The position numbers and the translations under genes were made by a program. From the NCBI GenBank assembly GCA_905236245.1, contig CAJOPC010000021.1, positions 1-48,963 of the forward strand: a DNA stretch of 48,963 bases. Reading direction: 5' to 3'. Of the stretch, positions 23,206-45,938 are shown piece after piece. Source of the stretch: an uncultured Alphaproteobacteria bacterium. Lineage in GTDB: Bacteria > Pseudomonadota > Alphaproteobacteria > CAAHEQ01 > UBA3637. The notes beneath the pieces were generated by a model. The model ran no database searches and had not been told where the DNA came from. It saw only the letters and a list, made by a program, of their open reading frames with translations. How positions within the stretch are numbered: position 1 is the stretch's first letter; each line of letters opens with the position of its first letter.

Positions 23206-23635
23206 ACATGTGCTTTTATACACAGACGGAGCTTGTTCCGGGAATCCTGGTCCCGGAGGATGGGCTTGTATTTTGGTGTATAATGGCATAGAAAAAGAAT
23301 TTTCAGATGGTGAGCATGAAACAACGAATAATCGGATGGAAATGACCGCAGTTATTAAAGGATTGCAAGCCCTTAAAGAACCTTGCGATATTGATTTGTA
23401 CACGGATAGCAAGTATGTTTTGGAAGGGGCTACCAAATGGCTTGCTGGGTGGCAAGAAAAAGGTTGGAAACGCGCCGACAAAAAACCCGTTTTAAATGTT
23501 GATTTGTGGCAGATTTTATCCGATCAAATGGGGCGCCATAACATTACTTGGCATTGGGTAAAAGGACATGCCGGAAATACTTTTAATGAAAAGGTAGATG
23601 CGTTGGCTGTCTTGCAACGCGATTCTCATAAATAA
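23198..23635 (+). CDS. rnhA: Ribonuclease HI
   Basis: [26 protein letters not shown] and [10 protein letters not shown]. Confidence 0.97.
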
Positions 23636-24918
23636 AGATAAAGCCAAACTATCAGAATCAGCCAGGGTAATCTGACATTCCACCATATTAGTGAAAGATT
23701 ATTGGTCCGATTTATTAAATCAAAGAATTTTTGAGCATAAATTTTTTGCACAACAAAGGTTCCAATTGTTACGGCAAATCCAATGATTAAAGTAGCCAAT
23801 TGAACGGCTAAATCTGCATTTGTTAAAAAATGCAAATAAGGACGAGGCGTTATAAAGGCTGCCAAAAGTGCTGTAATAGGCAAAGCATCAGCAAGGAAGA
23901 AGATAACGCCGGCCCAAATAAGCCATGTTGCAATGGACATGTTGGGTGTTATGAACCACGATAGATCGCCTTGGAATATGCCCCATGCTAGTGTGATTAT
24001 AGCAAACAGAGAGCTGGCAATAATTGCACCAGATGTTTGTAGTTTGTATTGATCAAAACTTGTTCTTTTTGTGCGGCCAAAATACAAAAACCATGGTGAA
24101 ACTAAAAACATCAAAATGCTAGAAAATAAAATTTGTTGAAAAGGAATTTGTGATAAAGGCGTTGGCTCGGTGATTTCTTTTAAAACAGGTGTTTCAATTT
24201 CATAATAATACATACCGCTGTGAATATACAGTTTTAAGACGTCATCATTTGTAGTAGAAGCTGGCAAAACAAGTTTTGTATGTGTTCCTTTTACTTCGGC
24301 TTTAACCGATAAAAGCTGTTTGTTGTAATCAAACGCTGTTAATTGATGCGGTAAATGGGGCAAATCAAGGTGAAGTAAAATAGTGTTATCCTGTTGTCTG
24401 GTCGCTTGAGCAGAAAGTCGATTCATATATGTAGGAATTGGTGTGTTCACCAAAGTTTGTGTAATACCTGTGCAAGCCGGTGTAATGATTGCCGTTTCGC
24501 GAGGTAAATCCAGTTTCAAACGAATCGGTTGTGTGATGCAAGTTTCTTCGTGGCAGGCGCTCCAACTCCCCGATACGGTAAAGGTGATCGGTTGTTTGAT
24601 GTCTTGAATGGCATAAGTGATGGGAAAGAACATTTGATCGTCATAGACTTGCCGGAAAGGGATCAATACTGTGCCAGGGCTGTGATTAGATGTTGTTGTG
24701 GCTAAATCAGGTGTTTTTAATTCCCAGCCAGGAAATGGTTGAGCGTGAACCGCCAAATAATTTAATCCGATTTGTGGAGATGTTAGACAAGAAACGAGGC
24801 GAATTTTGGCAAAAGGCAATTCCTGCCAATCGCTATGTCCTGGCATTTCGCTCCATATTGAAGCCGAACAAGTCCAGCTCCACATCAGCATAATTAAAAA
24901 TAAAATCCCCTTTTTCAT
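23626..24918 (-). CDS. DsbD-related protein: periplasmic DsbD N-domain plus degenerate TM region
   Basis: Signal peptide, [16 protein letters not shown] Cys pair and about 6 C-terminal TM helices; no thioredoxin domain. Confidence 0.55.
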
Positions 24919-25008
24919 GAAAAATATCATAGCAAAAAAAAACTTGATTGTCTTTAAAAAAATGATATAATAAAAACGTTTTGATAAATTTATTTGGAGG
25001 AAACGACT

Positions 25009-25584: not shown

Positions 25585-25881
25585 ATGAAACATTTATTAA
25601 TTAAGTTTATTTTCGCAAGTTGTTGCGGAGGAATGTTGTTCTTTGCTCCAAATGTGTGGGCAATACTGATTGATACTGGACTTGGGGCTGGTACAACGGT
25701 TCTTGATTCAAGTATGTGGAATGAATCGGAAGGTTCAACAGATGGAAGAACCGATGAAGGACAAGACAATGCCTCCGTTGAAAATGAAGATGATGATTGG
25801 CCTACACCAGAAGAGTTGTATGATATAGCTGTAAGACAAAGCGAACAGGCTAATCGCGAAAATTCGACCGAAATCGAATAG
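25585..25881 (+). CDS. Small acidic secreted hypothetical protein
   Basis: Strong G-rich RBS, signal peptide ending VWA, D/E-rich mature part. Confidence 0.6.
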   Translation: MKHLLIKFIFASCCGGMLFFAPNVWAILIDTGLGAGTTVLDSSMWNESEGSTDGRTDEGQDNASVENEDDDWPTPEELYDIAVRQSEQANRENSTEIE

Positions 25882-25931
25882 GTCGGTGAAATAGCACACA
25901 ATAAAAAAATCAAAAAAAATGAAAAAAAGTG

Positions 25932-25994: not shown

Positions 25995-28900
25995 ATGCAG
26001 AATTTTATCCGAATTTTGTTATTAGGTGTTGCATTTGTGTGTGGGGCAAGCTGTGAGGTTTGGGCAGCAGATTCGCAACATTATGTTGGGCTTCCGCGAG
26101 ATGGAATGTTAGATATTTTTGCAGATAGCGATGGTCATGCAATTTTTACTTTTCATATTGGCTCTACGGATCAGGTGTTTCATACGGCGGCCCAGGCCCG
26201 AGAGGCTTTGATAGATGAGTACTATGGTAGCCGTGAGGATCGCGCACTGAGGACTTTTGATGCTCTTGTGAGTGCATATGGTTTAAGTCCGAATGATAGT
26301 AGTACTCAATATTTTCAACCAAGAGATTACACGAGAACGTGGACCAGAGATGATAATGGACAGGTTGTTTTTGAAACACAACTTAAATCGATAACTATTC
26401 CTGGTTCTGCAGGAGGCAATTCAAATGGTTCTAGTTCGGATTATACGTATATGCCGGGAGCCTCTTGGACATCGCCAAGTGAGGTTGGTAGTGTAGGTGG
26501 TGGAGTTTTGTCTGCGCGAGAGGCAATGAAATATTCTAATATCATGGGGGTTGCTCCAAGAGATCCTACGCAACTTTCTTTTGGGCCAGTTCAGGGGGCG
26601 ACAGATCAATTTACTGGCAGCCTTACCGAATTGATGGGCAAGCCAGGGGGAAGAGAGTATTATCATGCGGTAATTGCTCCACAATTGGGTGATATGGGTA
26701 TCACGGTATTGAATAATGCGGCAAATAATACGACCTATTATGCAAAAAAGGAGGATTTACCACAGTTAAATGGTACTTTGAATCAAACCATTAAGATAGA
26801 TGGTGTCCCTATGCAAGTGGGAGATCTGGATACTGCGTCCATACGATCTTTGGCCGAAGCAAGCGGTATGACGTATAATAATGATACTACTTCTTTCAAA
26901 TATAATACCGACAGTTTAAGTGGTGTTACAAGAAACCCAGGAGGAGATTATTCTGCTACGGTTAATGGGACGGAAGTTTCCGGTATTTCACGGGAGATGT
27001 TGCCGTTTTCTATGGCCCAAACTGCAGATGATCATTTCCAGGCAAAAGTGGATCAAGTAGGAACAGCCGTACCGGTTACAACTGCAGATGGACGAACGAC
27101 GGGATGGTATGATGAAAAAACAAAAACAATAACCGTTGGAGGTCAGACATATACAGGGGTCATTGCAGAAGGAGATACTTTTTATGGTGGTAATCAGACT
27201 TTCCAACGAGCGGGGGAGGCCGCAGGATATGAGGTATATGACAAGTTTAATACCCATGTTGATCCCCAAAATGTTTCTATTAGAGTTGTAGATGGAAAGC
27301 CAGTTGCTGTTGATCGTCTTGGGCAAGTGATGGATGGGGCACACTTGGTGCCAAAGTCATTGGCTTCGGAATATAGTATGGATTCATACTTGGTTTATGA
27401 TAAAGACGGTGGTACTTGGAGTATAAGAGGTAATGATGCAAGCGGATCTCTTGTTCCAGCTCAAGTGCTTCAATATAATCCAGCGACAAATACATTTGAA
27501 TTGTCGGATGCACAGCGGCAATTGAACGCGGCACATGTTGCCAATCAGAACAATTATAACGCACAAATGGCAAAACTGGGCGAACAAATAAAGGGCGCAG
27601 AGGATGTTTTGCGTTTTGCAACCGTGCCCGAAAAGAATGCCGAAGGTCAGAAAACTGGTGGAACTACCTGGTTAAGCGATAGCGATAAGGAAACAATTCG
27701 AGGATTTATTAACAATGGTAATGCGGCTGGGTTGCAGGAGTATTTTGCGAACAACAATCCGGGTTTGTCTGAAGGGGATGTTAAAGCATTAGTGAATGCG
27801 GCTGCATCTCGGGCTACTCTTGATTCCTTGGCTAAACAACCAGGTGTGACGCAAGGGGATGTTCCTACTATGAACTTTAATAGTGCTATTGATAATGATT
27901 TAAAGAAAATGCAAACTCTTGCCGGTACAGTGAATGGAAATGATACGCTTGAGAATCGTTGGAATGCTTTGACCAGTTTGGCAGGTTTGGCTAATGGATA
28001 TGCTGATCCTAATTCGCCGACTTATAATCCTAGCTTTAATCCCAATAATATGCCATCAAGCATTGGATCCGCGATGGATGCGTCTCAGTACTTTTTTGAT
28101 ACGTCAGGAGATACGCTTAAGGGTGCCAATAAGACATTGTGGGATAATTTGAGATTTGGTCAAAATGATTATAATCAGTCTGGATATTACGCATTGAATG
28201 ACCAGAATCGTGGAATAATAGATGGACGCTACATGTTTGATGCCCGAGAAGGTAGTGAGTTTTCAAAGGGTTTGGCCAAGTTGGGTTTGAAAGTTGTGAC
28301 GCCGGATGGTGGTGATACATGGCAATTTGTGGCTGCGGGAGATTATAAGGATTTAGGTAGTGCATATATGGACTATGCTGCGGCAAGGAATGCTTATGAT
28401 GCATTATCTGGTCGTGGAAGTATGTCTCAAAGTACTTCGACAGTTGGCCGGTTACAAAATACGATTAGAGATCTTGAAAATAGGCTAAGTGAAATGCCAT
28501 TCTTTAAGAATAAGGACCAGAAGGCTCAAGCGGCTCAGCTTAAGCAACAGCTTGCAGACGCCAAAAAAGAACTTGCGGCAGCACAGGGACTGGTCGATAC
28601 TTATAAAAAGGATTTGAATGATCCTACTAATTTCAGCAAGTATTCAGAACTTGTTGGTCCTATGCAGGCGGCTCAGGACAGATTGGCGGCAGCTGAGGCA
28701 GCTTTAAAGAAAAACCCAAATGATCCAAAAGCAAAACAGGCTGTTGAATCGGCTAAGAAGGCGTTAGAAGATGCGCAAAATGCGTCCAAGCAAAATGTGC
28801 AAGATCTAGGGGCCCAACATATAGCAGCCGAGGCGGCAAATGCGGCACGGGAAAAGTTGATAGCAGAGTCAAGGAATGCTGCAAATCAAACTCTTGCCGG

Positions 28901-29984
28901 AGCGGCTGGATCTGGTGATACACCTAATGGACTTGGAACAAACAATAATGGAACATTTGTGCCAAGCGCTGGATTTGCACCGTTCTATAATATGATGATG
29001 GATCCGGATAGCGAGATTGGTGCGGGTATGCGTAATTATTTTGCAAGTAGCATTGACCCAAATACTGGTAATACATCTTCTGATTATCACAACCTTGATT
29101 TTTACAAGAATATGAGTCCGGAGCAAAGGGAAGCCTTTGATAAGTGGTTTGGTGGTTTGTCTCCCGAAGAAAGGCAAGCTTTGCAGACTGCCGGTGTCCA
29201 AACGGATGGTCCAATGGGAACGAAAAAAACTGAAGATCCATTGATGGCCCAAACCGAATTGGATAAGAAGGGAATGGATGTTCCACATGAAGCAAAGGTG
29301 GCAGATATTATCCAGTTAGCCTTAGAAATCACGAATACTCTTATGACCGACAATGAATTCGATGAAGTTAAGAACGTCGAAATTGCGGCAGGTGATATTG
29401 GCGAGGCCGTTGGCCCTGTTGAACCGACAGCGTTGGCAGATTCTGATTCTGTGACTCCAAGTGGTCGAATCACCAGTGCGGCAAGTTCTGCAGCCACATT
29501 GTTGAAGATGAGTCCTGTTGACTTGGATCTTTTGAGCACACATGTTGCACAAGAGGAAGAGGAGAATAATACACCTGCTTTACAAACGGGTCTTGGCGGA
29601 ACAAGTCAAGGACAAGGAACCGGAGAGGATGGCACACTTAATCCACCTGCACCGACGCCCGTTGTGGACTCAGAATATGTGAAGGAGATTAAACGACGTC
29701 GGCTTGAATTATTGCGTCAAACAGTGAATAGAGTTATTCCGTTGGCTGAAGGCATGAATGCAATATCCAAAGATTACTTTGAACGTGCAGACGGTTTTGT
29801 GTCGGATTTGAAGCCGGTGGTGACACAGAATGGATCTTTGGGTGGAAATCAAGACGTGAGTCGGTTTGTCTTGTTTGAGAACTTGCGTGCCAGTGCGTTG
29901 ACAGGGGCTCAAATGAGTGTGCAAAGTGCTAGAATTTTGAATGAACAGGAGGTTGTAGATGAAACTACATCAAGCAATAATTAA
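25995..29984 (+). CDS. Large secreted protein (~1329 aa) with coiled-coil segment and VirB5/TrbJ-like C-terminal helical region
   Basis: GGAGG RBS before ATG 25995; signal peptide ending VWA; G/T/N/D-rich N-half, Ala/Lys/Gln heptads, C-terminus resembles the downstream paralogues. Confidence 0.7.
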   Translation: MQNFIRILLLGVAFVCGASCEVWAADSQHYVGLPRDGMLDIFADSDGHAIFTFHIGSTDQVFHTAAQAREALIDEYYGSREDRALRTFDALVSAYGLSPNDSSTQYFQPRDYTRTWTRDDNGQVVFETQLKSITIPGSAGGNSNGSSSDYTYMPGASWTSPSEVGSVGGGVLSAREAMKYSNIMGVAPRDPTQLSFGPVQGATDQFTGSLTELMGKPGGREYYHAVIAPQLGDMGITVLNNAANNTTYYAKKEDLPQLNGTLNQTIKIDGVPMQVGDLDTASIRSLAEASGMTYNNDTTSFKYNTDSLSGVTRNPGGDYSATVNGTEVSGISREMLPFSMAQTADDHFQAKVDQVGTAVPVTTADGRTTGWYDEKTKTITVGGQTYTGVIAEGDTFYGGNQTFQRAGEAAGYEVYDKFNTHVDPQNVSIRVVDGKPVAVDRLGQVMDGAHLVPKSLASEYSMDSYLVYDKDGGTWSIRGNDASGSLVPAQVLQYNPATNTFELSDAQRQLNAAHVANQNNYNAQMAKLGEQIKGAEDVLRFATVPEKNAEGQKTGGTTWLSDSDKETIRGFINNGNAAGLQEYFANNNPGLSEGDVKALVNAAASRATLDSLAKQPGVTQGDVPTMNFNSAIDNDLKKMQTLAGTVNGNDTLENRWNALTSLAGLANGYADPNSPTYNPSFNPNNMPSSIGSAMDASQYFFDTSGDTLKGANKTLWDNLRFGQNDYNQSGYYALNDQNRGIIDGRYMFDAREGSEFSKGLAKLGLKVVTPDGGDTWQFVAAGDYKDLGSAYMDYAAARNAYDALSGRGSMSQSTSTVGRLQNTIRDLENRLSEMPFFKNKDQKAQAAQLKQQLADAKKELAAAQGLVDTYKKDLNDPTNFSKYSELVGPMQAAQDRLAAAEAALKKNPNDPKAKQAVESAKKALEDAQNASKQNVQDLGAQHIAAEAANAAREKLIAESRNAANQTLAGAAGSGDTPNGLGTNNNGTFVPSAGFAPFYNMMMDPDSEIGAGMRNYFASSIDPNTGNTSSDYHNLDFYKNMSPEQREAFDKWFGGLSPEERQALQTAGVQTDGPMGTKKTEDPLMAQTELDKKGMDVPHEAKVADIIQLALEITNTLMTDNEFDEVKNVEIAAGDIGEAVGPVEPTALADSDSVTPSGRITSAASSAATLLKMSPVDLDLLSTHVAQEEEENNTPALQTGLGGTSQGQGTGEDGTLNPPAPTPVVDSEYVKEIKRRRLELLRQTVNRVIPLAEGMNAISKDYFERADGFVSDLKPVVTQNGSLGGNQDVSRFVLFENLRASALTGAQMSVQSARILNEQEVVDETTSSNN

Positions 29985-30939
29985 TGCCGTTTGTGGTGCT
30001 GCTTTATTGGGGATGACGGTAGCTTCACCGGTTCGGAGTTATGCTTCGACAAGTGAGAAAATGGCTGAGATTCAGGAAGTGTTCACTTATCTTTCTGCGG
30101 GGGTTACCATACTTGCGGCAGGAGTGTCTTTGGTAACTACAGCTGGATGTCCGCTCTTTTGGTGTACGGATTCTATGCCTATGAAGGATGGAATTGGTAC
30201 TGGTTCATTTAATATAGATATTGCCGGGGCCCTTGTGGATGCTGCTGCCATTTGGGTGACCTCAGAATCTGGAACCGAGTGGAAAGGTTTGGAAGATGGT
30301 TTGCAAGCTGCTGTGCGAAAAATCGGCGAAGCAGAGGATCTACAAGAGTCTGGAGTGGAAGAAGCCTTTGTTGATAAATCAGAAATTTTGGTTGAATCCT
30401 TAGATACGGCTGGTTTGGAAGCACTGGAAGATCCAAGCGGAAACATTCCTAAGACACTCGATGAGATTATCAGTTCTCCAGCGAAAATTCAGGATGCTTT
30501 TGGCACGGTATCAGTAAGTCAATTGCAATCGGGTAGTAGTAATGGTAGCAATAGTGGTAGTAATACGAATAGTGGTAGTAATGGAACGTCAACAACGACA
30601 GTGCCATCTAATACCAATTTACAAACAGGCGTGAATCCCGAAAATCTGACGGCTGAGGAGTTAGACTTATTAAGAGCTCGTAGGCGTGAGGCTCATTTAC
30701 AAAAAGTTGCAACTGCAGGTGCTGCTCGTGCTCATTTGATGAAGGTTATTGCTAAAAGAGAAAAAGAGGCAGTTGAGAAGATGAAAGAAGTCGGTAAGGC
30801 CGATGGATTGGTTGCAAATGTTAAGTTGGTGACGGCAGATGATTTATATTTGGGACAGTTGCAAAATACAATGAATTCAGTTTTGGGGCAAGAAGTTGCA
30901 AATGAGGCTGCTGCGGCCTTGCAGAGTATTGAAGAATAA
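29959..30939 (+). CDS. Secreted protein, putative VirB5/TrbJ-like paralogue 2
   Basis: Signal peptide, hydrophobic segment, CPLFWC, S/N/G linker and shared C-terminal helical region. Confidence 0.6.
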   Translation: MKLHQAIINAVCGAALLGMTVASPVRSYASTSEKMAEIQEVFTYLSAGVTILAAGVSLVTTAGCPLFWCTDSMPMKDGIGTGSFNIDIAGALVDAAAIWVTSESGTEWKGLEDGLQAAVRKIGEAEDLQESGVEEAFVDKSEILVESLDTAGLEALEDPSGNIPKTLDEIISSPAKIQDAFGTVSVSQLQSGSSNGSNSGSNTNSGSNGTSTTTVPSNTNLQTGVNPENLTAEELDLLRARRREAHLQKVATAGAARAHLMKVIAKREKEAVEKMKEVGKADGLVANVKLVTADDLYLGQLQNTMNSVLGQEVANEAAAALQSIEE

Positions 30940-30950
30940 AGGAGGAGAAA

Positions 30951-31772
30951 ATGCGTAGAAAGCTTTTATTATCGGTTGTGGTGAGCTGTTTTCTTTTTTG
31001 TTCCAGTGTAGGTTATGGAAAGGTTGTTTTCCCGACCGGCGGTTTAGTCCATTCGCAGATACAAGATCCTATTAGCGCATTGGTTGAGGCTTTATTTTTA
31101 GCCATACAGTATACTCGTAAAGATACGGAAATTGATGCGAGCGCAGGTATTAAAAAGATAAAGGATAACATTGGACAAGGTGATGGTCCGGGAATTTCAG
31201 CAACGGGAGCTTCAGGCGCTGATACTGTTACTGATGAAGAAGCAGCTGAGATGGTTAAGGCAGCAGAAGAAGAGGCTGCAACAGTTCCTAATTTGATTAT
31301 TGAACTGATTGAGAAAAAGGAAGCCGATTTTAAGAAAGTTCAAGCGGTTATTGCAGATCAAGCTTTTGTGCGCGATAGCGCTGAAGTTAATGCTGATTGC
31401 GAATGTGATAATGGTAAAAAAGGCACACAATGTAGCCCTGTAGATTGTGCTGTTGATCGTCAAAATGAAGATTTAATGACCGCCTCAACGGCAGCATCGA
31501 CATTAGCAGATAGCTTTTTCCAAAAGGGGCAAGATGAAAGTTATGAAAAATTACAAGGGTTGATAGACCAGATTAATAGTGATGAAACGCTGATTGATTT
31601 CGTCGCAGATATGGGTGCTGTTTCTGTTTATTCTTCGGATCAATTGGTGGATATGATTGAGTTGTATGCATATGACTTGGCAGCTCAATCCTATCGTAAT
31701 TTATCAACGGTTGGCGTTGCGGAAGTTGATGTCGCACAAGCTGTGAAAGGGGATGTAGATGATGATTCGTAA
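30951..31772 (+). CDS. Secreted protein, putative VirB5/TrbJ-like paralogue 3
   Basis: AGGAGG RBS, signal peptide, IQDP motif, YEKLQGLIDQINSDET resembling the VirB5 C-terminal helix-turn-helix. Confidence 0.6.
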   Translation: MRRKLLLSVVVSCFLFCSSVGYGKVVFPTGGLVHSQIQDPISALVEALFLAIQYTRKDTEIDASAGIKKIKDNIGQGDGPGISATGASGADTVTDEEAAEMVKAAEEEAATVPNLIIELIEKKEADFKKVQAVIADQAFVRDSAEVNADCECDNGKKGTQCSPVDCAVDRQNEDLMTASTAASTLADSFFQKGQDESYEKLQGLIDQINSDETLIDFVADMGAVSVYSSDQLVDMIELYAYDLAAQSYRNLSTVGVAEVDVAQAVKGDVDDDS

Positions 31773-32637
31773 TAAAACTTTTTCAGGTATTATTTTAGGG
31801 GCTCTTTTTATGTCCTCGCTTGTTTGGGCGACATGTCCACCGGAAGGTCGTCCCAAGATTGTGATGGCTCCGTGGGCTGTGACCGATCCAATCCGTAATA
31901 TAACGGGTGCAGTTTTGACGTTGATATCCATGGGTAAGCATCCAAAACAAGTTGCAAAGATTGTTGGACACCAACAGGAAGTAGATGCTTTGATTGATGG
32001 TGAGGAGTCTTATAAGGTTGAGGAAGGAACGGGTTCGGGATCTGGTCCTTTGGAAATTAGCGCCTATACATATATCAAAGAAAAGATTTTTGATAAGCAA
32101 ATGTATTCTCCTTATTCAAAATTGAATAATAAGATTAAACCTTTATTAGGAGGTAGTAGTTCTTCCGGTTCCGGGGAATCCGGTGGTTCATCTGGCTCTG
32201 ATGGTTCTTCGGGCTCTAATGGTTCTTCGGGTTCTAGTGGTTCTTCGGGTTCAAGCTCGGGCGTTTCAAATTCAAGATTGCGTGAAGTTATCTTAGAAGA
32301 ATTTTTCATCGAAAATTCGGCTAAAAATACCGAGGAAAATCGTAAGAAAGTTCAACGTAATCGGGATGATTATTTAAGGGCTTTGGGAACTGAATATACG
32401 CGTTTGTCCAATACTGTTCAATCAAAAATCGGAGATGATATGGCGGCTGTTGTCGCAGCAGTTAGTGGAGATGGTTCTATAGGAATTGTGTCTGGAACCG
32501 ATCAGAGTTGGAAAGCTATTAACAAAGCAGTTTTGGTGGATTTGGCTTTGCAAATTGAAATGATGGAATTGGAAGCGGCACGGTTCTTGTCTGTTCAACC
32601 TATTCCAATGATTGATAATCCAGAACAAGGGTCGTAA
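31759..32637 (+). CDS. Secreted protein, putative VirB5/TrbJ-like paralogue 4
   Basis: Signal peptide ending VWA, VTDP motif, Gly-Ser linker and shared C-terminal region. Confidence 0.6.
   Translation: MMIRNKTFSGIILGALFMSSLVWATCPPEGRPKIVMAPWAVTDPIRNITGAVLTLISMGKHPKQVAKIVGHQQEVDALIDGEESYKVEEGTGSGSGPLEISAYTYIKEKIFDKQMYSPYSKLNNKIKPLLGGSSSSGSGESGGSSGSDGSSGSNGSSGSSGSSGSSSGVSNSRLREVILEEFFIENSAKNTEENRKKVQRNRDDYLRALGTEYTRLSNTVQSKIGDDMAAVVAAVSGDGSIGIVSGTDQSWKAINKAVLVDLALQIEMMELEAARFLSVQPIPMIDNPEQGS
32185..32256 (+). repeat. 4 x 18-bp imperfect tandem repeat encoding GSSGSx
   Basis: ggttcatctggctctgat / ggttcttcgggctctaat / ggttcttcgggttctagt / ggttcttcgggttcaagc. Confidence 0.85.
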
Positions 32638-32647
32638 GGAGGATCAG

Positions 32648-33853
32648 ATGAAAAAGTTTTTAATTGGTTTACTACTTTTGGGCGTGAGCGTTTCTGCTGT
32701 CGCGGTGGATGAGCCGTACGATTCTCATGCGAGAGCTACAGGTTATAATATGGCCGCAGGAAAACAGCAGGGAACTGAATTGGGAAATAGAAATGATAAT
32801 CCTACTTATCGTAAAGATGATGATATCGCGGCTGGTATCAATATGGGGCTTGGTTCTATTTCCATGGTGGATTCTCTTTTGGGAATGTTTACTAAATTTA
32901 CAATAATGGGAAAACTTAATGAATGGGCTAAAGATGCCATTCAAGGTTTGATTTCTTCTGGAGAATCTAAGGCTGCTAACTGCCCGCTGTGTGCTACGAC
33001 ATTGGCAACGGAAGCAACAGGTGGCCCTGAAGATCCGGCTTATGCTGGGGCTTATGCTTCATTTTTGTTGTCTTGTGAGACAATGCCTCCTGTTATGTTA
33101 AAACCTGGTCCAAACGAGCAACATTCTTTTGAAGATACTGTTTGCCCGGTGTGTGTGGAATCTATTGGACATAAGTGGCCACCGATTCTTTTTGTGGCGC
33201 CGGATGTGATGGGTTTGGTTGTTTCAGGTGTAAAATTGCTCACAACACAATTTTTACAGGATGCTAATAAAGTTATTGCACAATTGGTTGGAGCAGAAGG
33301 CCATGTGACAGATAAATGGGTTGGTCCGCCATCTCGTAATACAGTTATTCAAACTATGGGCGAAGTTATTGCGGTTACTTCTCATACATTTGCTTCCTTG
33401 GGTTTTGATGCAAGTGAATACAAGGGAATAGAGGCTCCGGATAAAGCTTCTAGACGAGAATTATTTGAATATCGTTCTAAACAGATTGCCGAAGATCAAA
33501 GATCTTTAAAGAATGTGACACAAAAGAATTTGCGTTTGTTGTATCGTGCTCAACAACGTTCGGTAAAGGCTTTGACTCGTGCGATGGAATTAAAAAAGCA
33601 ATTAAATGTTTTGGCAGATGTGGATGCTAAGATTGATGCAAAATATGATAATTTGCCATCTTCTTTGTCGGCAGAAGCCAGTCGTCGGGCCTTGTTTGGT
33701 GCTTTGATGCAATTAAAATTAAGTATAGTGGCTGCGCGTACGAAAATGCGTTCAGAGGCTTTGGAATTAGAATTTAAACCCATGGTTAAACAAACAGAAG
33801 GTGTGAAATTAGCCACGGGAACTGCTGGGATAACAGACGGAGGCTCACAATGA
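32648..33853 (+). CDS. Secreted Cys-containing protein, putative VirB5/TrbJ-like paralogue 5
   Basis: AGGAGG RBS before ATG 32648, signal peptide AVA, CPLC and CPVC motifs, helical C-terminus. Confidence 0.55.
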   Translation: MKKFLIGLLLLGVSVSAVAVDEPYDSHARATGYNMAAGKQQGTELGNRNDNPTYRKDDDIAAGINMGLGSISMVDSLLGMFTKFTIMGKLNEWAKDAIQGLISSGESKAANCPLCATTLATEATGGPEDPAYAGAYASFLLSCETMPPVMLKPGPNEQHSFEDTVCPVCVESIGHKWPPILFVAPDVMGLVVSGVKLLTTQFLQDANKVIAQLVGAEGHVTDKWVGPPSRNTVIQTMGEVIAVTSHTFASLGFDASEYKGIEAPDKASRRELFEYRSKQIAEDQRSLKNVTQKNLRLLYRAQQRSVKALTRAMELKKQLNVLADVDAKIDAKYDNLPSSLSAEASRRALFGALMQLKLSIVAARTKMRSEALELEFKPMVKQTEGVKLATGTAGITDGGSQ

Positions 33854-35013
33854 AAAAATCATTCTTTTTGTTTGTTTGTTTAACTGCATTGGTTGCCGGA
33901 ACAGGACATGCGGCACGTTATGGGGTTACGCCAATGGTAGAACGTCAAATTGGCACGATAGGAAAGTATCTTCCTTCTCATAACGAGGCACTCGATAACG
34001 CGTTGACGGCACACAATTTGCTTAATAAGTTGCCGGAGTTACAGAAGGTGTCCGAGACAATGCGTACTTTGGGACTTACAACCAAAAAAATGCAAAAATA
34101 TTTTGATAGTTTGATGAAGTGTAATGAACAACGGTTTGCCGGACGTTTTAAGAATCCTCGGGCGATGGTTGATAAAGTGCGGCAGGAATATGCACAACGT
34201 GTTGACGCAATGCCAAAAGAGGCTGATTCGGATCCGGATAGTATTGTTCCGTTATCTATCAGACAACGTGATGAGCGTAGTAAGCGTAAGGCGCAGATTG
34301 AAAACGAGGTAATGACAGATGTTTTTAAAAATGGTGAAAAATATGGTGGTGAGATTATAGCTAAATCTTCTGCTGTTGCGCCCAAAGTGATGCCTCGAAA
34401 TTCCGAGTATAATGTGCTCCAAGAAATGGGAGATTTGGAGACGGGCTTGAATAATGCTAAGGTTGGTCAAGAACAGTTGGCATCCACGTTTAAGCGGATG
34501 CAAGACGATTTTTCTCGCCAACTTGAGAAATTAGGTTTGTCGTATCCGAATTTAGATCTGTCAAAGGGGGCTCAGGTTTTGTCAGTGCGTAAAGCGCTCA
34601 AAGAGGTGAAAAGTCGTTATCTAAACGAAGCTAAAGCATATATCGTGAAGTTGGACGAACAGGACGCGGCTCATCCAGATTTAGCTAAAGAACGTGAAGC
34701 GCGTTCTATGAATAAAGAAAAAGTTATGGCGCGGATGCAAGAGCAATTCCCGGAGGCTTTTTCTGAATTACAAAGTTTGGATTATCAAACCCCACAACAA
34801 CAGCAACAGTTGTTGGTTACGGCCTTGGAACAGGATAAGGAAGCCTTGGTGTATTTAACAGCTACAAATGCTGTAGAAGTAGATCAGCGCATGGCTGAAG
34901 GGCGTTCAAATCGAGCCATGGTCCAAGAGTTAGTCGATAAAGCCTTTAATTTGGTTGACGAAAATATGGAACAGGCGTTTGATTTTGATTTTAGTATGTG
35001 TCAATCAAGCTAA
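33850..35013 (+). CDS. Secreted all-helical/coiled-coil hypothetical protein
   Basis: Signal peptide ending GHA; ATGA overlap with the previous gene; charged helical sequence. Confidence 0.65.
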   Translation: MKKSFFLFVCLTALVAGTGHAARYGVTPMVERQIGTIGKYLPSHNEALDNALTAHNLLNKLPELQKVSETMRTLGLTTKKMQKYFDSLMKCNEQRFAGRFKNPRAMVDKVRQEYAQRVDAMPKEADSDPDSIVPLSIRQRDERSKRKAQIENEVMTDVFKNGEKYGGEIIAKSSAVAPKVMPRNSEYNVLQEMGDLETGLNNAKVGQEQLASTFKRMQDDFSRQLEKLGLSYPNLDLSKGAQVLSVRKALKEVKSRYLNEAKAYIVKLDEQDAAHPDLAKEREARSMNKEKVMARMQEQFPEAFSELQSLDYQTPQQQQQLLVTALEQDKEALVYLTATNAVEVDQRMAEGRSNRAMVQELVDKAFNLVDENMEQAFDFDFSMCQSS

Positions 35014-35030: not shown

Positions 35031-35651
35031 ATGGCGCAGCAGTTGCAGTCAGCATGGCATTTGACGCGTTTGTTGATGGTATCGTGTTGGATTCTGTGGG
35101 TGTTGGTGTTTTTTGTGACTGTGACTCTTTTCCAGGCGGTCATACAGATTCATGTGGTTGCTCAGGTCGTTCGGCAAAACTCGATGTTTTTTGAGGATTT
35201 AAGCCAGGTCGTTCCGATTAATGCGGGTATTTGGACGCGTGTGGATGATATGTTGGTGCGCTTTTATTTGGAAATGCGTTATTCCATTATTCCGGATTTG
35301 GATGAAATGAAAAGACGGTGGGGAGAAGCAGGTATCGTATCATATTTGTCTTCTTCGTCGGCCTATAATGCATTTATGCCTAAACCCAATGAAATTTCCC
35401 AAATTGTTACGTCAACACCTCCGCGGGTTGTTGATGTGACGCGGGTGGAACGGCAAGGTGGTCGTTATTCTGTTGACTTTGATTTATATGAGTTTGATAA
35501 GATATCTAAATGGCGTAAAACAAGTAAGACGGCAACTTTGGACTTTACGTATGATCGTAGTAGAGTCTTGTTGGTTCCTGAGATGGGTAATCCCAATGGT
35601 TTTGTGATCACACGTGTCAGTGAATCTGAAGAAAAATCTGTGACGAATTAA
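35031..35651 (+). CDS. virB8: VirB8-like T4SS inner-membrane protein (copy 1)
   Basis: N-terminal TM, LVRFYLEMRY, VSYLSS..AY..F and C-terminal NPNGFVIT. Confidence 0.75.
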   Translation: MAQQLQSAWHLTRLLMVSCWILWVLVFFVTVTLFQAVIQIHVVAQVVRQNSMFFEDLSQVVPINAGIWTRVDDMLVRFYLEMRYSIIPDLDEMKRRWGEAGIVSYLSSSSAYNAFMPKPNEISQIVTSTPPRVVDVTRVERQGGRYSVDFDLYEFDKISKWRKTSKTATLDFTYDRSRVLLVPEMGNPNGFVITRVSESEEKSVTN

Positions 35652-35909: not shown

Positions 35910-36611
35910 ATGGCTGGTGAAACCACAGGACAACAAGGACATCACAAAATTTCTGCGCGAGAGGTATTACAGGAAGAAAGATACCTGTGGATGTCGCGCG
36001 CTTTTACAGTTATGGTCGTGTTGGCCATTATTTGTAATGTTATTTTGTTGATTGCTTTAGCTAATGTGACGCCGGTGATGCGTGTGCAGCCATTTTATTT
36101 GGAAATACAAGATAAAGATCATCAAGTTATCAATATTGTTCGGCCGAGTGCGGAGACTTTGGATTCCGATTTGTTAAAAGAATCTTTGTTGCGCCAATAT
36201 TTATTGGCTCGATTTGGAATGGGATCGGATTTAACCGAATTAGAAGAGCGTTGGGGTGAAGATGGAATTGTTTATTGGATGAGCGTTGATTCCGTGTTCT
36301 CACAATTTACAGAAGAAGCTCGTAAGTTATTGCGTTTGGCATATGAAGACAATTTGGTGAGAAGTGTGCGTATTTTGTCAGCAAAGAAGGCCAGCCAAGG
36401 TAGCACGGAAGGGGCTGCTGACGTGTGGGAAGTTAAATTGGAATTTCAAGATATAGACAGATCATCTGAAGAGCCAAAGTTTCGGTATTTTGTGGCAAAG
36501 GTTGAGGTTATTTTCCAACCGACACGGTCCGGTTTATTGTGGAGTCAAAGGTTGAAAAACCCGCTTGGTTTTACGGTAACCAGATTTGGTTTGACCGCTG
36601 TTGAAAAATAA
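35910..36611 (+). CDS. virB8: VirB8-like T4SS inner-membrane protein (copy 2)
   Basis: TM followed by P..RVQPF, LRQYLLAR, VYWMS..VF..F and NPLGFTVT. Confidence 0.82.
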   Translation: MAGETTGQQGHHKISAREVLQEERYLWMSRAFTVMVVLAIICNVILLIALANVTPVMRVQPFYLEIQDKDHQVINIVRPSAETLDSDLLKESLLRQYLLARFGMGSDLTELEERWGEDGIVYWMSVDSVFSQFTEEARKLLRLAYEDNLVRSVRILSAKKASQGSTEGAADVWEVKLEFQDIDRSSEEPKFRYFVAKVEVIFQPTRSGLLWSQRLKNPLGFTVTRFGLTAVEK

Positions 36612-36741: not shown

Positions 36742-38433
36742 GTGAAAAAGAAGGTATTTTTAAAGGGGGTTTTACCTTTATTAACAGGGGCAGTTTCTGC
36801 TATTTCTCTTTCTGCAATTGCGCAAAATTTGCCGGCGGATCCGCAAGCGGCTCAATTGGCCGATGCTATGGCTGGAACAGCGGGAGAATATGATGAAGTC
36901 AATTTGGATTATATTCATTCGTTGGGAATGCAACAAAAAGCGTGGAATAATCCATTAGCTCACATGGGTGCTGGTCAAACAAAACCAGGTTATTCAAAGT
37001 ATAATTGGACGCCTGATACTGTTTTGCCTGTGCGTGTGCGTGAAGGCATGATGACATTGATCAACTTGCCCGCATGGGAGTTGATAGAAAATGCACACAT
37101 TGGTTCTCCGGAATCTTTTTATGGTAAAGTGGTGGCGCCAAATTCAATCATGATTTATGCGGAACCTTCCTATATCGGTGTGGATAGTAACATGATTTTG
37201 TTTGGACGCTCTGGAAATCGATATGTGTTCTATTTGCGTAGTGAAACATTTAACACAGATAAAATCACACAATCCGTTGTGGATGTATTGGTTGGTCCGC
37301 GTTGGACGCCTGTCGCTGATGGTGGACAGATGCGTGAAGGAAATGGAACATCTACCATGGCCTCTATGCCGACAATCAATTTGGCTGGCGGATTTTCTAC
37401 GGGAACATCTGGTTCTGTTGCTAATGCTTCTGTGGCTCAAAATATCGCAGATGAGTGGAAAAATAGTGTTCCTATGGACCCTGAGAGCTTGAAATTTGAT
37501 TTGGATATGTTTTTGCCAAATCCTGATGATGTGGATATCGCTCCGGATAATATTTGGAGAGATAATATTTTCACCTATATTGATTTGGGACCGAAGGCAT
37601 TGACGATGACACAGCGTCCTGTGGTTAGTTTGTTAGTGCAAGATACAGAGGTGCCAGTCGGATTTAGAACGCGTGGCGCGAATAGTCGTTTGATTGTTGT
37701 AGAAGCAATTGGTGATTTAGTGTTGCGTAATGGTCAAAAAGTTATTTGTATTAAATTAAGACGTGATCCTGCGGCTGGTTTGGAATATACGGATTATAGC
37801 GGATTTAATGAAAAACCATATGCGTATTTGCAACAGTTGCCGTCACGTTCTGGAGATATGCCGAACCCAGAAGTGACTTTGAATAACGGATCTATGTTGC
37901 ATGGTAGCAGTCCATATGTTTCAGCACAAAATGGCGGTGGCGTTGTAAATGCTGGTTATGCTACGGAAACGGGTGGATTAAATCCATATGCAACGCCTTC
38001 ATATGCAATGCCTTCTTATTGTGCGGATACGACAGGCGCAAATCGTTGTGCTGCCGGTGGAACATGGCAGGATATTCGTCCAATTCCTGAATCTGCAGTC
38101 AATTATGCCCCGGCTTATGCTGGTGTAGAGGCTGCAACGGCTGATCGTGGAACGGTCTTGCCTGTGGCGGTCAATGAGACAATCGCTTTAGAGTTTGGTA
38201 CGGCGCCTGATATTGCAGACTTGGAAAAGCTGTGGGAGCAAGTATATGCGGCTAATGCAGATATTTTATCTGGATATGATCCATATTATTCCGTCGATGC
38301 TTCTGCAAACGGCGAGATGGCGGATCTGTTCCGTTTAAGGGCCGGCACTGTGAAAGATGCTGAAACCGGAGACGCCTTGTGCCGTAAGTTGGGTCGTCGA
38401 GGATACTCATGCTCGGTTGTGCGTATTAAATAA
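36742..38433 (+). CDS. virB9: VirB9/TrbG outer-membrane core subunit fused to a C-terminal SPOR domain
   Basis: Signal peptide; TLINLP..E.I....IG, SNM......NRY.F.L, P..IW.D..FTY, LVLRNGQKVICI; C-terminal FRLRAG....A...ALC..L...G.SC. Confidence 0.85.
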   Translation: MKKKVFLKGVLPLLTGAVSAISLSAIAQNLPADPQAAQLADAMAGTAGEYDEVNLDYIHSLGMQQKAWNNPLAHMGAGQTKPGYSKYNWTPDTVLPVRVREGMMTLINLPAWELIENAHIGSPESFYGKVVAPNSIMIYAEPSYIGVDSNMILFGRSGNRYVFYLRSETFNTDKITQSVVDVLVGPRWTPVADGGQMREGNGTSTMASMPTINLAGGFSTGTSGSVANASVAQNIADEWKNSVPMDPESLKFDLDMFLPNPDDVDIAPDNIWRDNIFTYIDLGPKALTMTQRPVVSLLVQDTEVPVGFRTRGANSRLIVVEAIGDLVLRNGQKVICIKLRRDPAAGLEYTDYSGFNEKPYAYLQQLPSRSGDMPNPEVTLNNGSMLHGSSPYVSAQNGGGVVNAGYATETGGLNPYATPSYAMPSYCADTTGANRCAAGGTWQDIRPIPESAVNYAPAYAGVEAATADRGTVLPVAVNETIALEFGTAPDIADLEKLWEQVYAANADILSGYDPYYSVDASANGEMADLFRLRAGTVKDAETGDALCRKLGRRGYSCSVVRIK

Positions 38434-38442
38434 GGATTTTTA

Positions 38443-41400
38443 ATGGCAGAGAATCGGAAAAGCTTATCAGAACAATCAAAACAACGGACAACTTGGATTT
38501 TATCCGTTATGGGTTTGATCATTTTGATGTTGTTTATTGTGGTTTTCTGCTCTTTAAGACAGAAAGAAGCTCCTGTTGTGCGTCAACAAGAACAAGATGT
38601 CTTTACGGTGACATCCACATTAGATGACGCAAATAATGGAGATTCGGGGATCCCCGATTGGAATGCGGAAAAAGCACAATTAATTATTAATCCCGCCGAG
38701 GTTGATTTAGGTAAAGCAATTTTGGGGGCGACAGCTGAGGCCAATGTTATTTTAAGAGCGGAAGATGCCCCGATTGTCTTTTTGCAAAAGTATCTAGCGG
38801 AAACGACGGATAATGGTTTTATCTTGACGGGTCCTTGTATGGAAAAAACGCAATTGAATGCGGGCGAGGAATGTGTATTGAAAGTTACTTGGACGCCTGT
38901 GACAGTGCGCAACATACAAAATGTATTGACAATTGTATGGCGGACTGATGATCCTCGAGTTTTGCGTGATCAAAGAAGCCAAATCCAATTAAGAGCAAGT
39001 TCGACAGATTCTAAAGATTGTGTTTGTTGTGAAATCGAAAAAGAAACAGAGCCTGTTGTTCCTCAAAAGGGTGTCAATGTTGCGACCGGTGAGGAAGTTG
39101 AAATCAAAGATGGCAAGGTCATCGTAGATGGTAAAGAGATCGAAGTCAAAGGAGAAGTTGCTATTGATCCGGACAGCGATATTTTTGTTATTGTTGAGCC
39201 AGAACGCATAGCATTAAGTTTGGATAATAAGTTTTTGGGTCGTGTTTCCGATCGTCGTACGGTCGTAGATGCAGAAGGTAAAACTATTGGTCGGTTATTA
39301 GGAGATGATACATTAGTTGATTCTAATTTCAATATTTTAGGGGCAGCGCTACCATTGGTTTCTGTATTAGATGCTCAAGGCGCCGTTATTGGTAAAACAG
39401 AGGTCACTCAAGATGGAAAAAATGTTCGTGTTGTTGATGCAGATGGCGAAATTGGAACTTTGAGAGTAGATGGATCTGTTGTGGATAGATCGGGCACTCA
39501 AATCGGTATGTTGCGCGATTGGGGTATGGCCATGGATTTGTCTGGCGAGTTGATGGGGGCGGTTTTGCCAACAGGTGTGGTTGTTAATTCAAACAAGAAA
39601 GCTTTAGGACATATTCAACAAAATGGCTTTATTTTGGATGATAGCGGTATCTTGATTGGTGGTGTTGTGCCAAAAGGTATTGCGGTCGGAACAGGATGTC
39701 GTTCATATGGAACGATTGCGTTAAATGGTCAGGTTAAGGATTCATATGGTCAGGTTGTTGGTCGAGTGATGTTGGATCGAGGTGTTGTTGATACAAACTT
39801 TAACGAGCTTGGTGCGGCAGTGTCTGCGGGTGTTATCGTTGATATGAAAGGCCAAGTAATTGGGTTTGTTAATTCAGAAGGTAAAGCTGTTGATGGTAAA
39901 GGTTCTTTAATTGGATGTATTGCGCCGAACGGAGTGGTGTCTGCAGGCAAGAAGAACGTAGGCGGTATTTTGCAAAAAGGTAAAGTGACAAGTAATACAT
40001 GCGGTGTGTTGGGTTCTGTATATCCAGATGCAAGTGTTATGAATCAAGATGTTCAACCCATTGGAAAAGTGCGTTCGGATGGATATGTTATTGACAAGCA
40101 AAATAACCGTTTAGGTATTGTTGTTCCTCGGGGCACAGTGCTTGCTGAAGCTTGTAATTTGATGGGTGTTATTTCTGTTACCGGTCAGGTGATTAATACA
40201 AAAGGGATGTCTATCGGATGTATCAATATGTCTCGCCAAGCTGTCGATACAGAAGGCCGAGAAATTGGTAAAATAACTCCGACGGGACCGGTATTGGCCG
40301 CAGATGGTACTTTGGTTGGTCGAGCAAGATATGATGGACGAATTATTGATAAATCCGGGAAAGTAATTGATTGTATTAATCCAGATGGTAGTAGCTCTGT
40401 GGGACAATCCGCAGGTAGTGGCCGTGGTAATGGTGCAATTTTTGATGATAATGGTTTGCCGACAGGGTGGACTTCTTTGGCTGGTAAATGTTATGATGAA
40501 CGCAATGATGAAGTTGGTACTATTGCTTTCAATGGTTGGGTTTCTGATAAAAACGGACGGTTGATCGGATTTATGCCGCCAAATGGTTTTGTTGTTTCTT
40601 CTTCTGGATCCATTTTAGGTAATTATAACGCATTGTTGGGCTTGGTTCAAAATTTGAACGGAGATGAGTTAGGTCGTGTTATGCCCGATTGGACGGTTTT
40701 AAATGTTGATGGAACTGAAATTTTAGGAGCTCTTATTCCTTCAAATGCTGGATTTGTTGATTTGTCTGGTAAAGTTATCGGGCGTTTAAATGGGGATGGT
40801 AAGGCAATCAATGCAGAAGGCAGTGTATTAGGTAAAGTTTTGGCTGATGGTGCTTTGTATGGAAATGATAATGCATTGCTTGGTGGTATGGTTCCTACCG
40901 GAGCGGTGTTGTCTTCATTGGGCGCATATGTTGGATTGGCCAATGAACAAGGAGATGTGTTGGCTCAAGGAACCCGTATTGGTCGTGCTCTTTCCAATGG
41001 ATTGGTTGTTACACCGGATAATCGTATATTGGGCCGTGTATGGATGCCAATGTCTGTTTTGGTGTCTGGAGAAGGTGTTATTGGAACGATTGTTCCTAAG
41101 GCTGTGAATAAATCTGATAGCACTGCTTATCAGTTGGCCGGATATGATAAGACGGGCAATTATCTTGGAAGTGTTTCTCCATTTGGTGTTTTACTATCTA
41201 GTGATGGGCGTTTAGGTGGTAGGGCCGTGCCGATTACCATGGTTGTTGATACCAGTCGTCGTTTTATTGGTTGGGTTAATTTTAAAGGACAAGTTGTAAA
41301 TGCCGAAGGGCAAGGTGTTGGTGTTTTAATGGGCGATGGCCTTGTTTTGGACAGCGACGGACATTTGGTTGGAACCGTTGTTCGTAAAGGAACTGTTGTG

Positions 41401-44951: not shown

Positions 44952-45938
44952 ATGGGTGGCGGATTAGTTGATTCATACAGAGTTTTGGAAATGGCTTTGA
45001 AGCCCTTGTCATATTGGTATAGTCAAGACAATGTGGAAGATGTTGCAGTCAATAATCCTGGCGGTATATGGTTGCGTCTTCGAGGTCGTCATGCGCATCC
45101 GTGGCATTATTATGAAGATCCAAAACTAACAAGAGAATATTTGTATAATATTATGTATTTGATTGCAAATACATTGGAACAGCCGTTTGGTCCAGAGATT
45201 CAAATTCCGATGCTTTACACGGATTTGCCCGGCGGACACCGTTTCGGCGGTATTATGGGGCAAAATGTGCGTTATGATGAAAATGATTTGGAGGGCGGTA
45301 TTGCATTCGATATCCGTGTTTATCGGCCAGATGTTGATATTAAAATGGAAGAATTTGGTTTGGTCAAAGGTGGTCGCTTACATCAATTGAATCGTTTGAA
45401 AAATGTGGAAGATCCGGATGATCCGTATGAGCGATTGGTTTTATCTATCAAACGTGGAGATCATTTGTTGATCAGTGGTGGAACGGCGACCGGTAAAACA
45501 ACATTTTTAAATAATATCTTGAAATTATTGGATGAACACAAGCGTATTGTGACGGTTGAAGATACACGAGAATTGATTGTTCATCAACCGAATCATGTAC
45601 ATTTGTTGGTTTCTCGTGCTGGTGCGGCAAACAAATTTGGTTATGCTCAAGTGGTGGACTTGGTTAACCGTTTTACGCCGGATTCTATTATTTGCGGAGA
45701 GATTTCAACAGATAATGCTTCTGCTATATGGGAATTGATGAATACTGGTCACGATAACTGCTTTGCAACTATTCACGCAGATAGTGCGGAAACGGCTTAT
45801 CGCGCTTTTATCAGCCGAATTATGCATACAAATCGTGAGCTGGATCAAGATAAAACATTTAAAGAAATGAAAGAGCGGTTGCGTGTTGTTCAAATCAATC
45901 GTGATGGAAATATTCGTGCAATTACTGCTATTACTTAA
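44952..45938 (+). CDS. virB11: VirB11-family secretion ATPase
   Basis: DVAVNNPG, Walker A GGTATGKT, Asp box VEDTREL, Walker B PDSIICGE and His box NTGH..ATIHA. Confidence 0.92.
   Translation: MGGGLVDSYRVLEMALKPLSYWYSQDNVEDVAVNNPGGIWLRLRGRHAHPWHYYEDPKLTREYLYNIMYLIANTLEQPFGPEIQIPMLYTDLPGGHRFGGIMGQNVRYDENDLEGGIAFDIRVYRPDVDIKMEEFGLVKGGRLHQLNRLKNVEDPDDPYERLVLSIKRGDHLLISGGTATGKTTFLNNILKLLDEHKRIVTVEDTRELIVHQPNHVHLLVSRAGAANKFGYAQVVDLVNRFTPDSIICGEISTDNASAIWELMNTGHDNCFATIHADSAETAYRAFISRIMHTNRELDQDKTFKEMKERLRVVQINRDGNIRAITAIT

Follow-up and report, generated by a model that had tools for sequence, protein, structure and literature searches.

A lineage-specific, multi-paralogue set of predicted secreted proteins encoded next to a P-type type IV secretion system in uncultured Alphaproteobacteria

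Contig CAJOPC010000021.1 of an uncultured Alphaproteobacteria bacterium (NCBI GenBank assembly GCA_905236245.1; GTDB lineage CAAHEQ01, UBA3637) was analysed as a single window of 48,963 nucleotides. It carries five consecutive open reading frames (ORFs), A to E, which are followed by a sixth, F, and by genes encoding a type IV secretion system (T4SS). The question raised by this locus is what these proteins are and what they contribute to the machine whose genes they precede. A sequence-only reading of the locus had proposed that A to E are secreted paralogues with a common C-terminal helical region and unrelated N-terminal parts, that they resemble the VirB5/TrbJ proteins, and that they form a heteromeric set. 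The ORFs, their coordinates and the ten C-terminal motifs quoted in that reading were all verified in the translations. As judged from sequence profiles, the module is a lineage-specific, multi-paralogue secreted set attached to a P-type T4SS, in which the paralogues are ancient and none is recognizable as VirB5.

Each of A to F begins with a hydrophobic segment that is preceded by basic residues and is of the Sec signal-peptide type, in agreement with the earlier proposal that the proteins are exported. These calls were made with a heuristic on basic plus hydrophobic N-termini and not with a dedicated predictor. No Pfam match at E ≤ 0.01 and no NCBIfam match at E ≤ 0.1 was obtained for any of the six, and no toxin, enzyme or effector domain was seen in these searches.

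Comparisons of single sequences were uninformative. An all-versus-all BLASTP search among A to E gave no pair under E = 1, and when all 1861 ORFs of the genome were searched with hidden Markov models of the last ∼125 residues of each family, cross-family matches appeared only at E values of 1.2–8.6. For this reason, orthologues were collected for profile work. In iterated jackhmmer searches over 3144 ORFs, every locus yielded a single orthologue of each of C (35 sources), D and E, and likewise of F, except for two F matches in one locus. The C, D, E and F families were never merged by these searches, and they are thus old, distinct orthologous families. The 76 ORFs located upstream of C cluster, apart from a few small groups, into a B family (n = 22) containing the B protein of the window and ∼230-residue proteins of other genera, an X family (n = 21) found only in other genera, and an A family (n = 16) found only in this genus.

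The HHalign profile–profile comparisons reveal that A, B, C and D share their C-terminal ∼100 residues, in register and linked via X as a bridging family. With the signal peptides trimmed off, as holds for all values given here unless noted, X aligned with A at 85% (E 6e-6, 101 columns), with B at 93% (E 4.6e-7; 93–95% and E 4e-8 to 5e-7 across runs), with C at 90% (E 1.8e-6; 90–94% across runs with and without trimming), and with D at 92% (E 5.5e-7). The C–D pair scored 91% (E 1.2e-6; 91–97% and E 1.9e-10 to 1.2e-6 across runs with and without trimming), followed by A–B at 65% (E 5.9e-5, 96 columns), B–C at 48% (E 1.8e-4) and B–D at 40% (E 2.9e-4); with untrimmed profiles, A–D reached 31% (E 5e-4). 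The A-B-X-C-D network was unaltered when other master sequences were used or when the signal peptides were left in place, and merging the C and D profiles brought no gain toward A, B or E. Reversed-profile controls, which retain composition and helix periodicity, gave no more than 23 bits, as compared to 36–53 bits for the genuine trimmed pairs. The best score of E against any family was below 23 bits after trimming, which is the null level, and F had no profile match to A–E. Because both E and F are helical, occur in the same genomes, and match none of A, B, X, C or D, they serve as internal negative controls.

On the basis of these comparisons, A to D are paralogues with a common tail domain. 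They are ancient relatives at less than 20% identity, detectable only by profile–profile comparison. The proposal of five proteins with a common C-terminal helical domain and variable N-termini thus stands for four of them and is not supported for E, the tail of which, with two long helices encoded at nucleotides ∼33458–33784, resembles the others by eye only. Judging by where it lies and by which family it scores best with, A probably represents X in this genus, as an orthologue whose N-terminal region has been much enlarged.

Predicted structures provide a description of the tail. AlphaFold models of C (pLDDT 74, from 34 sequences) and D (pLDDT 70, from 56 sequences), both of moderate confidence overall, each contain seven helices in identical order over the full length: a pair at the N-terminus that is modelled with low confidence, then three short ones, and finally two long antiparallel ones of high confidence. 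The long helices, 40–48 residues each, extend from 163 to 210 and from 214 to 254 in C and from 192 to 237 and from 240 to 279 in D, and the shared domain corresponds to the last short helix together with this hairpin. In the models C and D appear alike over their whole lengths, beyond the tail, so that the N-terminal parts of these two proteins are not wholly unrelated as had been supposed. In A, a long, genus-specific and variable N-terminal region precedes a conserved C-terminal ∼250 residues, and in comparisons with orthologues of 533–1403 residues only the C-terminal 6–22% could be aligned, even among close relatives. A search of the ESM Atlas with the N-terminal part of A gave no usable match.

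The remaining proteins differ in their embellishments. The orthologues of B in other genera are ∼230 residues long. At residues ∼35–105, the mature N-terminus of B is rich in Gly and Ala and hydrophobic in character, and one or two of its segments resemble membrane helices; it is also found in the genus orthologues and is absent from the ∼230-residue orthologues elsewhere. This part of B could insert into a membrane. There is a Ser/Gly-rich insert in D at residues ∼132–168. The N-terminal ∼190 residues of E (nucleotides 32648–33250) form a Cys-rich extension (CPLC...C...CPVC), which is found in the closest relatives only and which precedes the point where the E orthologues of other genera start their mature chain. 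F, always directly upstream of virB8a, is 387 residues long here, 383–531 within the genus and 499–554 in other genera; it has an invariant Cys 91 and is the best conserved of A–F. No relative of F was found in a sequence profile search of the PDB, in Pfam, or in a profile scan of the contigs of the genome, and F is counted here as a putative seventh partner of the machine. For D, the PDB sequence profile search and a Pfam search with 15 family members gave only weak or unrelated matches.

Complex prediction with the mature chains of C and D gave a score of 0.49 (0.59, 0.49 and 0.24 in the individual runs), as compared to 0.00 for all three controls. Of 80 solved complexes 58 attain a score of 0.49, as do 2 of 110 mismatches, and among those reaching it without exceeding 0.60 are only 7 of the 80 solved complexes together with both mismatches. 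Contact agreement between the runs was at least 4% and the partner pLDDT at least 50; the tool rates the prediction as weak support. The prediction slightly raises the likelihood of a heteromer, in line with the heteromeric set originally envisaged, for this one pair.

The arrangement of the genes is constant. The order A, B, C, D, E, F, virB8a, virB8b, virB9, virB10 is found in 14 genomes of the genus, and 20 further loci share this order apart from changes upstream of C. The module is syntenic with virB8-virB8-virB9-virB10 at every one of these 34 related loci, from eight genera, while its upstream neighbour varies (infC, folD, a uvrA-like gene and others). There are five genes in the module in 26 of these loci, six in 5, seven in 2 and four in 1; the five-gene form is thus the modal size, and it is found in four of the eight genera sampled. 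The compact orthologues of the module proteins measure 225–290 residues, as compared to 273–1329 for the forms in the window. In one locus of another genus (L031, 3235–5346, forward strand), there are two additional secreted ORFs, at a distance of two and three genes upstream from the B orthologue. Both contain EGF-like domains (PF07974, E 3.6e-15; Teneurin-type EGF, E 4.5e-17), which are eukaryote-like adhesion modules.

The module is restricted to one lineage and evolves faster than the machine beside it. Indeed, identity to the five closest relatives is 27–49% for A–F versus 63–76% for VirB9. At 30–45% protein identity, synonymous sites are saturated. Of the 80 genomes of the family, 55, representing 9 of its 16 genera, gave a match to the D profile. 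The D family forms 22 clusters in a set of 5.8 billion proteins, and an exhaustive profile search among 1.84 billion proteins returned 95 representatives only, and thus the family is otherwise undescribed. Public relatives of VirB9 are titled as bins of uncultured Alphaproteobacteria from animal or human gut and rumen samples. A literature search under RF32 and CAG-239, which we take to be names of this lineage, gave no paper on a T4SS in it.

Are these proteins, then, the VirB5 of the system? Several features point in that direction. The module families combine a Sec-type N-terminus, by the heuristic, with a VirB5-like compact size, VirB5 proteins having a cleavable Sec signal peptide and some 200–250 residues in the mature form. 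The VirB5 family is regarded as defined by a mature N-terminus of the form hydrophobic-P-V/I-x-D or V-x-D-P that leads into helix 1. After their signal peptides, the genuine VirB5s that were fetched start with GVPTFD, LVHDP and VVNDP, and the corresponding N-termini in the window are QIQDPIS for C and AVTDPIR for D, so that the I/V-x-DP motif noted in the sequence-only reading is backed in part. In its strict form, P[VIT]xD at residues 13–75, the motif is enriched in D (10 of 35) and E (8 of 34, the carriers being from other genera) over a background of 16 of 1288 ORFs and 7 of 399 signal-peptide-like ORFs (1.2–1.8%). It is rare or absent elsewhere, with counts of 2/35 in C, 1/22 in B, 0/21 in X, 0/16 in A and 1/35 in F, and in the E protein of the window the corresponding Asp lies ∼190 residues from the N-terminus. 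Given that related genomes are not independent, the counts overstate the case and are indicative only. The motif is the most specific hint toward VirB5.

The direct tests had a different outcome. At E ≤ 1, PF07996 matched none of 56 D proteins and none of 33 E proteins; it likewise had no match among 27 module proteins drawn from four other genera or among 16 distant D relatives, and a six-frame search of the genome gave no PF07996 match even at E ≤ 10. The NCBIfam VirB5/TrbJ models found nothing for A–F. A VirB5 reference profile of 19 non-redundant sequences was assembled from two alphaproteobacterial VirB5s obtained via PF07996, an IncN TraC-type protein, and their relatives. When untrimmed, C aligned with this profile at 36 bits (E 1.5e-4, residues 168–240 of C with 125–196 of TraC). 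After trimming of the signal peptide the score was 24 bits, in the null range given reversed controls of up to 23 bits, and D scored 15 bits; overall, the window families gave 15–26 bits. F was also considered as the true VirB5 and rejected: its untrimmed score of 43.7 bits (E 1.9e-5) arose mostly from the signal peptide, with a 22-residue gap, and was 25.8 bits after trimming.

Structural searches gave unspecific matches. The known VirB5-family structures, TraC, TrwJ and CagL, are bundles of three helices with a small appendage. The D model superimposed on TrwJ/VirB5 (8rt9_A) with a Z-score of 7.1 and a root-mean-square deviation of 4.6 Å over 120 residues, the C-terminal halves being colinear, and on CagL (4yvm_A) with a Z-score of 6.2. 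Generic bundles matched D equally well or better: spectrin repeats and designed bundles gave Z-scores of up to 8.2, and ClyA 6.9. Among the best 50 matches of the C model (Z ≥ 6.8), all were generic helical hairpins and VirB5 was absent. In Foldseek searches of the PDB, 3 of 18 weak rows for D were VirB5-family chains, and nothing was found for C or D at E ≤ 0.001. The only leads for D in the ESM Atlas were below 0.9, namely DUF4141 at 0.87 and, at 0.86, a cluster with PF07996 on 32% of its members. The predicted fold is compatible with VirB5 but unspecific. These failed searches and generic matches, together with the scarcity of the motif in A, X, B and C, the shared ancestry behind its counts and the displaced Asp of E, all speak against the VirB5-type reading, and homology of the module proteins to VirB5 is not proven. 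What survives of the proposed VirB5/TrbJ likeness is a set of hints, namely the N-terminal motif, the size, and the lack of a VirB5 elsewhere in the genome.

That last hint follows from an inventory of the assembly, which is 1.12 Mb in size and 85% complete. VirB3-VirB4 are encoded on contig C24, VirD4 on contig C4, and a VirB2/TrbC pilin on contig C12. On contig C45, at 28130–33827 of the reverse strand, there are three tandem polytopic VirB6-like ORFs of 772, 433 and 689 residues. These were found with the VirB6 proteins of relatives, and the Pfam TrbL model misses them at E ≤ 0.001; TrbL matches are present in 72 of the 80 genomes of the family, mostly as two or three large tandem paralogues. 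The only T4SS components unaccounted for in the assembly are VirB1, VirB5 and VirB7. A genome that by these assignments has VirB2, VirB3, VirB4, three VirB6, two VirB8, VirB9, VirB10, VirB11 and VirD4 yet no canonical VirB5 gives a hint toward a VirB5 role for the module. The VirB10 protein, several-fold larger than usual at 2164 residues, is built from an N-terminal membrane anchor, an ASH/choice-of-anchor-D-like domain, at least nine β-flower repeats (PF21785), and, at the C-terminus, a TrbI domain of normal kind. All related loci likewise have a large VirB10, most of these being cut short at the limit of the fetched stretch or contig.

Of the systems described thus far, the Rickettsiales rvh T4SS provides a close parallel to the apparatus as a whole. 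It is likewise a chromosomal P-type T4SS of a reduced-genome alphaproteobacterium, dispersed over scattered loci, with a duplicated VirB8, several large tandem VirB6 proteins, and no recognizable VirB5 (PMC2653234). With its own scattered loci, duplicated VirB8, multiplied VirB6 and missing VirB5, the present apparatus therefore resembles rvh; the likeness is one of composition. The two differ in that no counterpart of A–F is reported for rvh (PMC2653234), and in that the window has a single VirB9 and the 2164-residue VirB10.

The module itself is similar to the minor pilins VirB5, TraC of pKM101, TrwJ of R388 and CagL, whose family is PF07996 with an N-terminal DUF4141, in its Sec signal, in its compact forms of ∼230–290 residues, and in its all-helical character with long C-terminal helices. 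It is also similar in its coding position inside a P-type T4SS operon and in the N-terminal motif of part of the D and E families. It differs from the VirB5 family in having five to seven distinct genes rather than one, in not being located beside virB4 or virB6, both of which are on other contigs, in the extension of more than 1000 residues on A, and in the lack of any PF07996 or NCBIfam match. In R388, a VirB5 pentamer is seated on a VirB6 pentamer, and TrwJ resembles Hemolysin E (PMC9259494).

A second comparison is with the Trw system of Bartonella, in which trwJ (VirB5) and trwL (VirB2) are tandem-amplified (PMC2883598); the copies are recent and readily alignable duplicates, plainly VirB5, and were co-amplified with the VirB6/VirB7 genes trwI and trwH. 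In both cases a T4SS component exposed at the surface, presumably so in the present one, exists as several variants in tandem that diverge faster than the machine, a process proposed to diversify target binding (PMC2883598). The present paralogues are, in contrast, ancient, each a stable orthologous family across genera. They have no BLASTP similarity to one another, their jackhmmer families remain separate, and the VirB6 paralogues are elsewhere in the genome, on another contig.

Since the proteins are exported, helical, paralogous and always encoded before T4SS genes, they probably belong to the surface or the tip of the machine. In the explanation that we favour, A–D, and probably E, would be Sec-exported, all-α-helical subunits that work with the adjacent T4SS in the periplasm and on the cell surface, most likely in a role equivalent to that of minor pilins or stalk-tip proteins of the VirB5 type. 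The conserved C-terminal unit, a short helix plus a hairpin of 40–48-residue helices, would act as a scaffold that fits every paralogue into the machine, the likeliest site of attachment being the VirB6/VirB2 stalk or the pilus. The N-terminal halves, which evolve fast, and the extension of more than 1000 residues on A would face outward and bind target cells. Taken as a whole, this explanation is put forward tentatively, with rather less than even confidence.

A more elaborate form of it would replace the C5 homopentamer of the R388 type with five anciently diverged paralogues (A/X, B, C, D and E), each at a position of its own. Their common C-terminal helices would make up the ring, from which five different N-terminal heads, one of more than 1000 residues, would project outward. 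The modal module size of five genes (26 of 34 loci) can be cited for such a heteropentameric tip, which we nevertheless consider quite improbable.

Other roles must be weighed against that of a VirB5-type tip. In Bordetella pertussis, the genes for the signal-peptide-bearing toxin subunits stand in tandem, directly upstream of the ptl T4SS genes, and the Ptl system is not known to have a VirD4. The module could similarly encode Sec-dependent cargo. Once exported to the periplasm, and perhaps assembled there by means of their common C-terminal domain, the proteins would be released or displayed via the outer-membrane channel of the T4SS. The signal-peptide-like segment on each ORF and the position of the genes immediately upstream of the T4SS genes match the ptx-ptl arrangement, and the rapid evolution, the hypervariable N-terminal region of A, and the EGF-like domains on two extra ORFs near the B orthologue of one other genus would all suit cargo. 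The Ptl system is also without VirB5 (PMC2653234). Such a role is nonetheless unlikely. The proteins here are all-helical, Pfam and NCBIfam give no toxin or enzyme domain for A–F, and every sampled genus of this bacterial family has a single orthologue of each of C, D, E and F per locus, which fits structural parts better. VirD4 is present in the genome, unlike in the Ptl system, and the VirB5-like features of D and E would be left without explanation. It is likewise unlikely that the proteins serve the core complex as lineage-specific accessories in the periplasm or outer membrane, comparable to the Cag-specific or Dot/Icm-specific additions, that are needed around the giant VirB10 and the duplicated VirB8 and play no tip or adhesin role. 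The strict synteny with virB8–B11, an apparatus unusual in its 2164-residue VirB10 with β-flower repeats, two VirB8 and three VirB6 proteins, and the co-conservation of F, which is unrelated to A–E, are all in accord with accessory parts. Core components, however, are usually conserved, whereas A–E are among the fastest-evolving genes of the locus, A ranges from 533 to 1403 residues with only its C-terminal 6–22% alignable between close relatives, and the size of the module varies from four to seven genes over the 34 loci.

Less probable still are the two readings that detach the proteins from the structure of the machine. It is very unlikely that they are unrelated envelope proteins that neighbour the T4SS genes by chance, with a C-terminal similarity of coiled-coil composition only. 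The lack of single-sequence similarity and the generic fold matches would be expected in such a case, but the reversed-profile controls stayed at or below 23 bits versus 36–57 bits for genuine pairs, the helical E and F proteins of the same genomes fail to match, and the gene order is constant over at least nine genera while the upstream neighbour changes. The notion of translocated effectors, with the shared C-terminal ∼100 residues as a T4SS signal domain read by VirD4, is scarcely credible. C-terminal signal domains of this sort are the BID domain of the Bartonella Beps and the XVIPCD domain of Xanthomonas effectors, and four tandem genes beside a T4SS that encode variable N-terminal parts and a common C-terminal helical domain, in a genome with VirD4, do recall them. 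The signal-peptide-like segments, however, are conserved in the orthologues of all families and imply a Sec route to the periplasm, beyond the reach of a cytoplasmic coupling protein, and Pfam and NCBIfam detect no known effector domain.

Listed in Table 1 are the features of the locus. From A to virB8a the genes are tightly packed, with overlaps or with gaps of 17 nucleotides or less. A scan for promoters and terminators gave nothing in excess of shuffled sequences. The start of A is most plausibly the ATG at 25995, which is preceded by GAGGGAGG, a good ribosome-binding site, and which corresponds to Met 23 of an ORF of 1351 residues beginning with a GTG at 25929. The start of E is most plausibly at 32648 (MKKF). 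The C-terminus of VirB9 (residues 512–561) contains a weak SPOR-like, peptidoglycan-binding segment (E 0.0058, under the Pfam cut-off). Between infC and A there is an ORF of 98 residues (25585–25881, forward strand). It has a strong ribosome-binding site, and its start resembles a signal peptide (…VWA/ILIDTG); it is not conserved among 16 loci of the genus and is doubtful as a real gene. Between rnhA and infC, an ORF of 434 residues (23626–24930, reverse strand) is without a Pfam or NCBIfam match.

Table 1. Features of the module and of the adjacent T4SS genes, in positions of the window.
Feature	Position	Strand	Description
A	25995-29984	+	Secreted protein, 1329 aa; ORF call and translation
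Shared C-terminal domain in A	29658-29960	+	Residues 1244-1344 of the GTG ORF; HHalign
B	29959-30939	+	Secreted protein, 326 aa
Shared C-terminal domain in B	30640-30933	+	Residues 228-325; HHalign
C	30951-31772	+	Secreted all-helical protein, 273 aa
Shared C-terminal domain in C	31320-31721	+	Residues 124-257; short helices and two-long-helix hairpin in model
D	31759-32637	+	Secreted all-helical protein, 292 aa
Shared C-terminal domain in D	32263-32607	+	Residues 169-283; helices 167-182, 192-237, 240-279
E	32648-33853	+	Secreted protein, 401 aa; 413 aa if from upstream TTG at 32612
F	33850-35013	+	Sixth secreted ORF, 387 aa
VirB8 paralogue a	35031-35651	+	Pfam PF04335, E 8.6e-7
VirB8 paralogue b	35910-36611	+	Pfam PF04335, E 5.3e-13
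VirB9 (CagX domain)	36742-38433	+	Pfam PF03524, E 3.1e-15
VirB10	38443-44937	+	2164 aa; PF21785 in 9 stretches, E 6.4e-70; PF03743, E 1.6e-29; NCBIfam VirB10 domain
VirB11 ATPase	44952-45938	+	TIGR02788, E 1.1e-43 (below curated cut-off); Pfam T2SSE

A chromosomal, rvh-like T4SS is kept throughout a family of uncultured Alphaproteobacteria with small genomes (about 1–2 Mb), whose nearest public relatives bear the titles of gut and rumen metagenome bins. As the fastest-evolving and presumably exposed part of the system, the module is the best handle on target recognition. If its proteins do replace VirB5, they would show how far the tip of a T4SS can diverge and multiply, and their profiles could be used to look for "missing" VirB5 functions elsewhere among lineages with reduced genomes, for instance the Rickettsiales.

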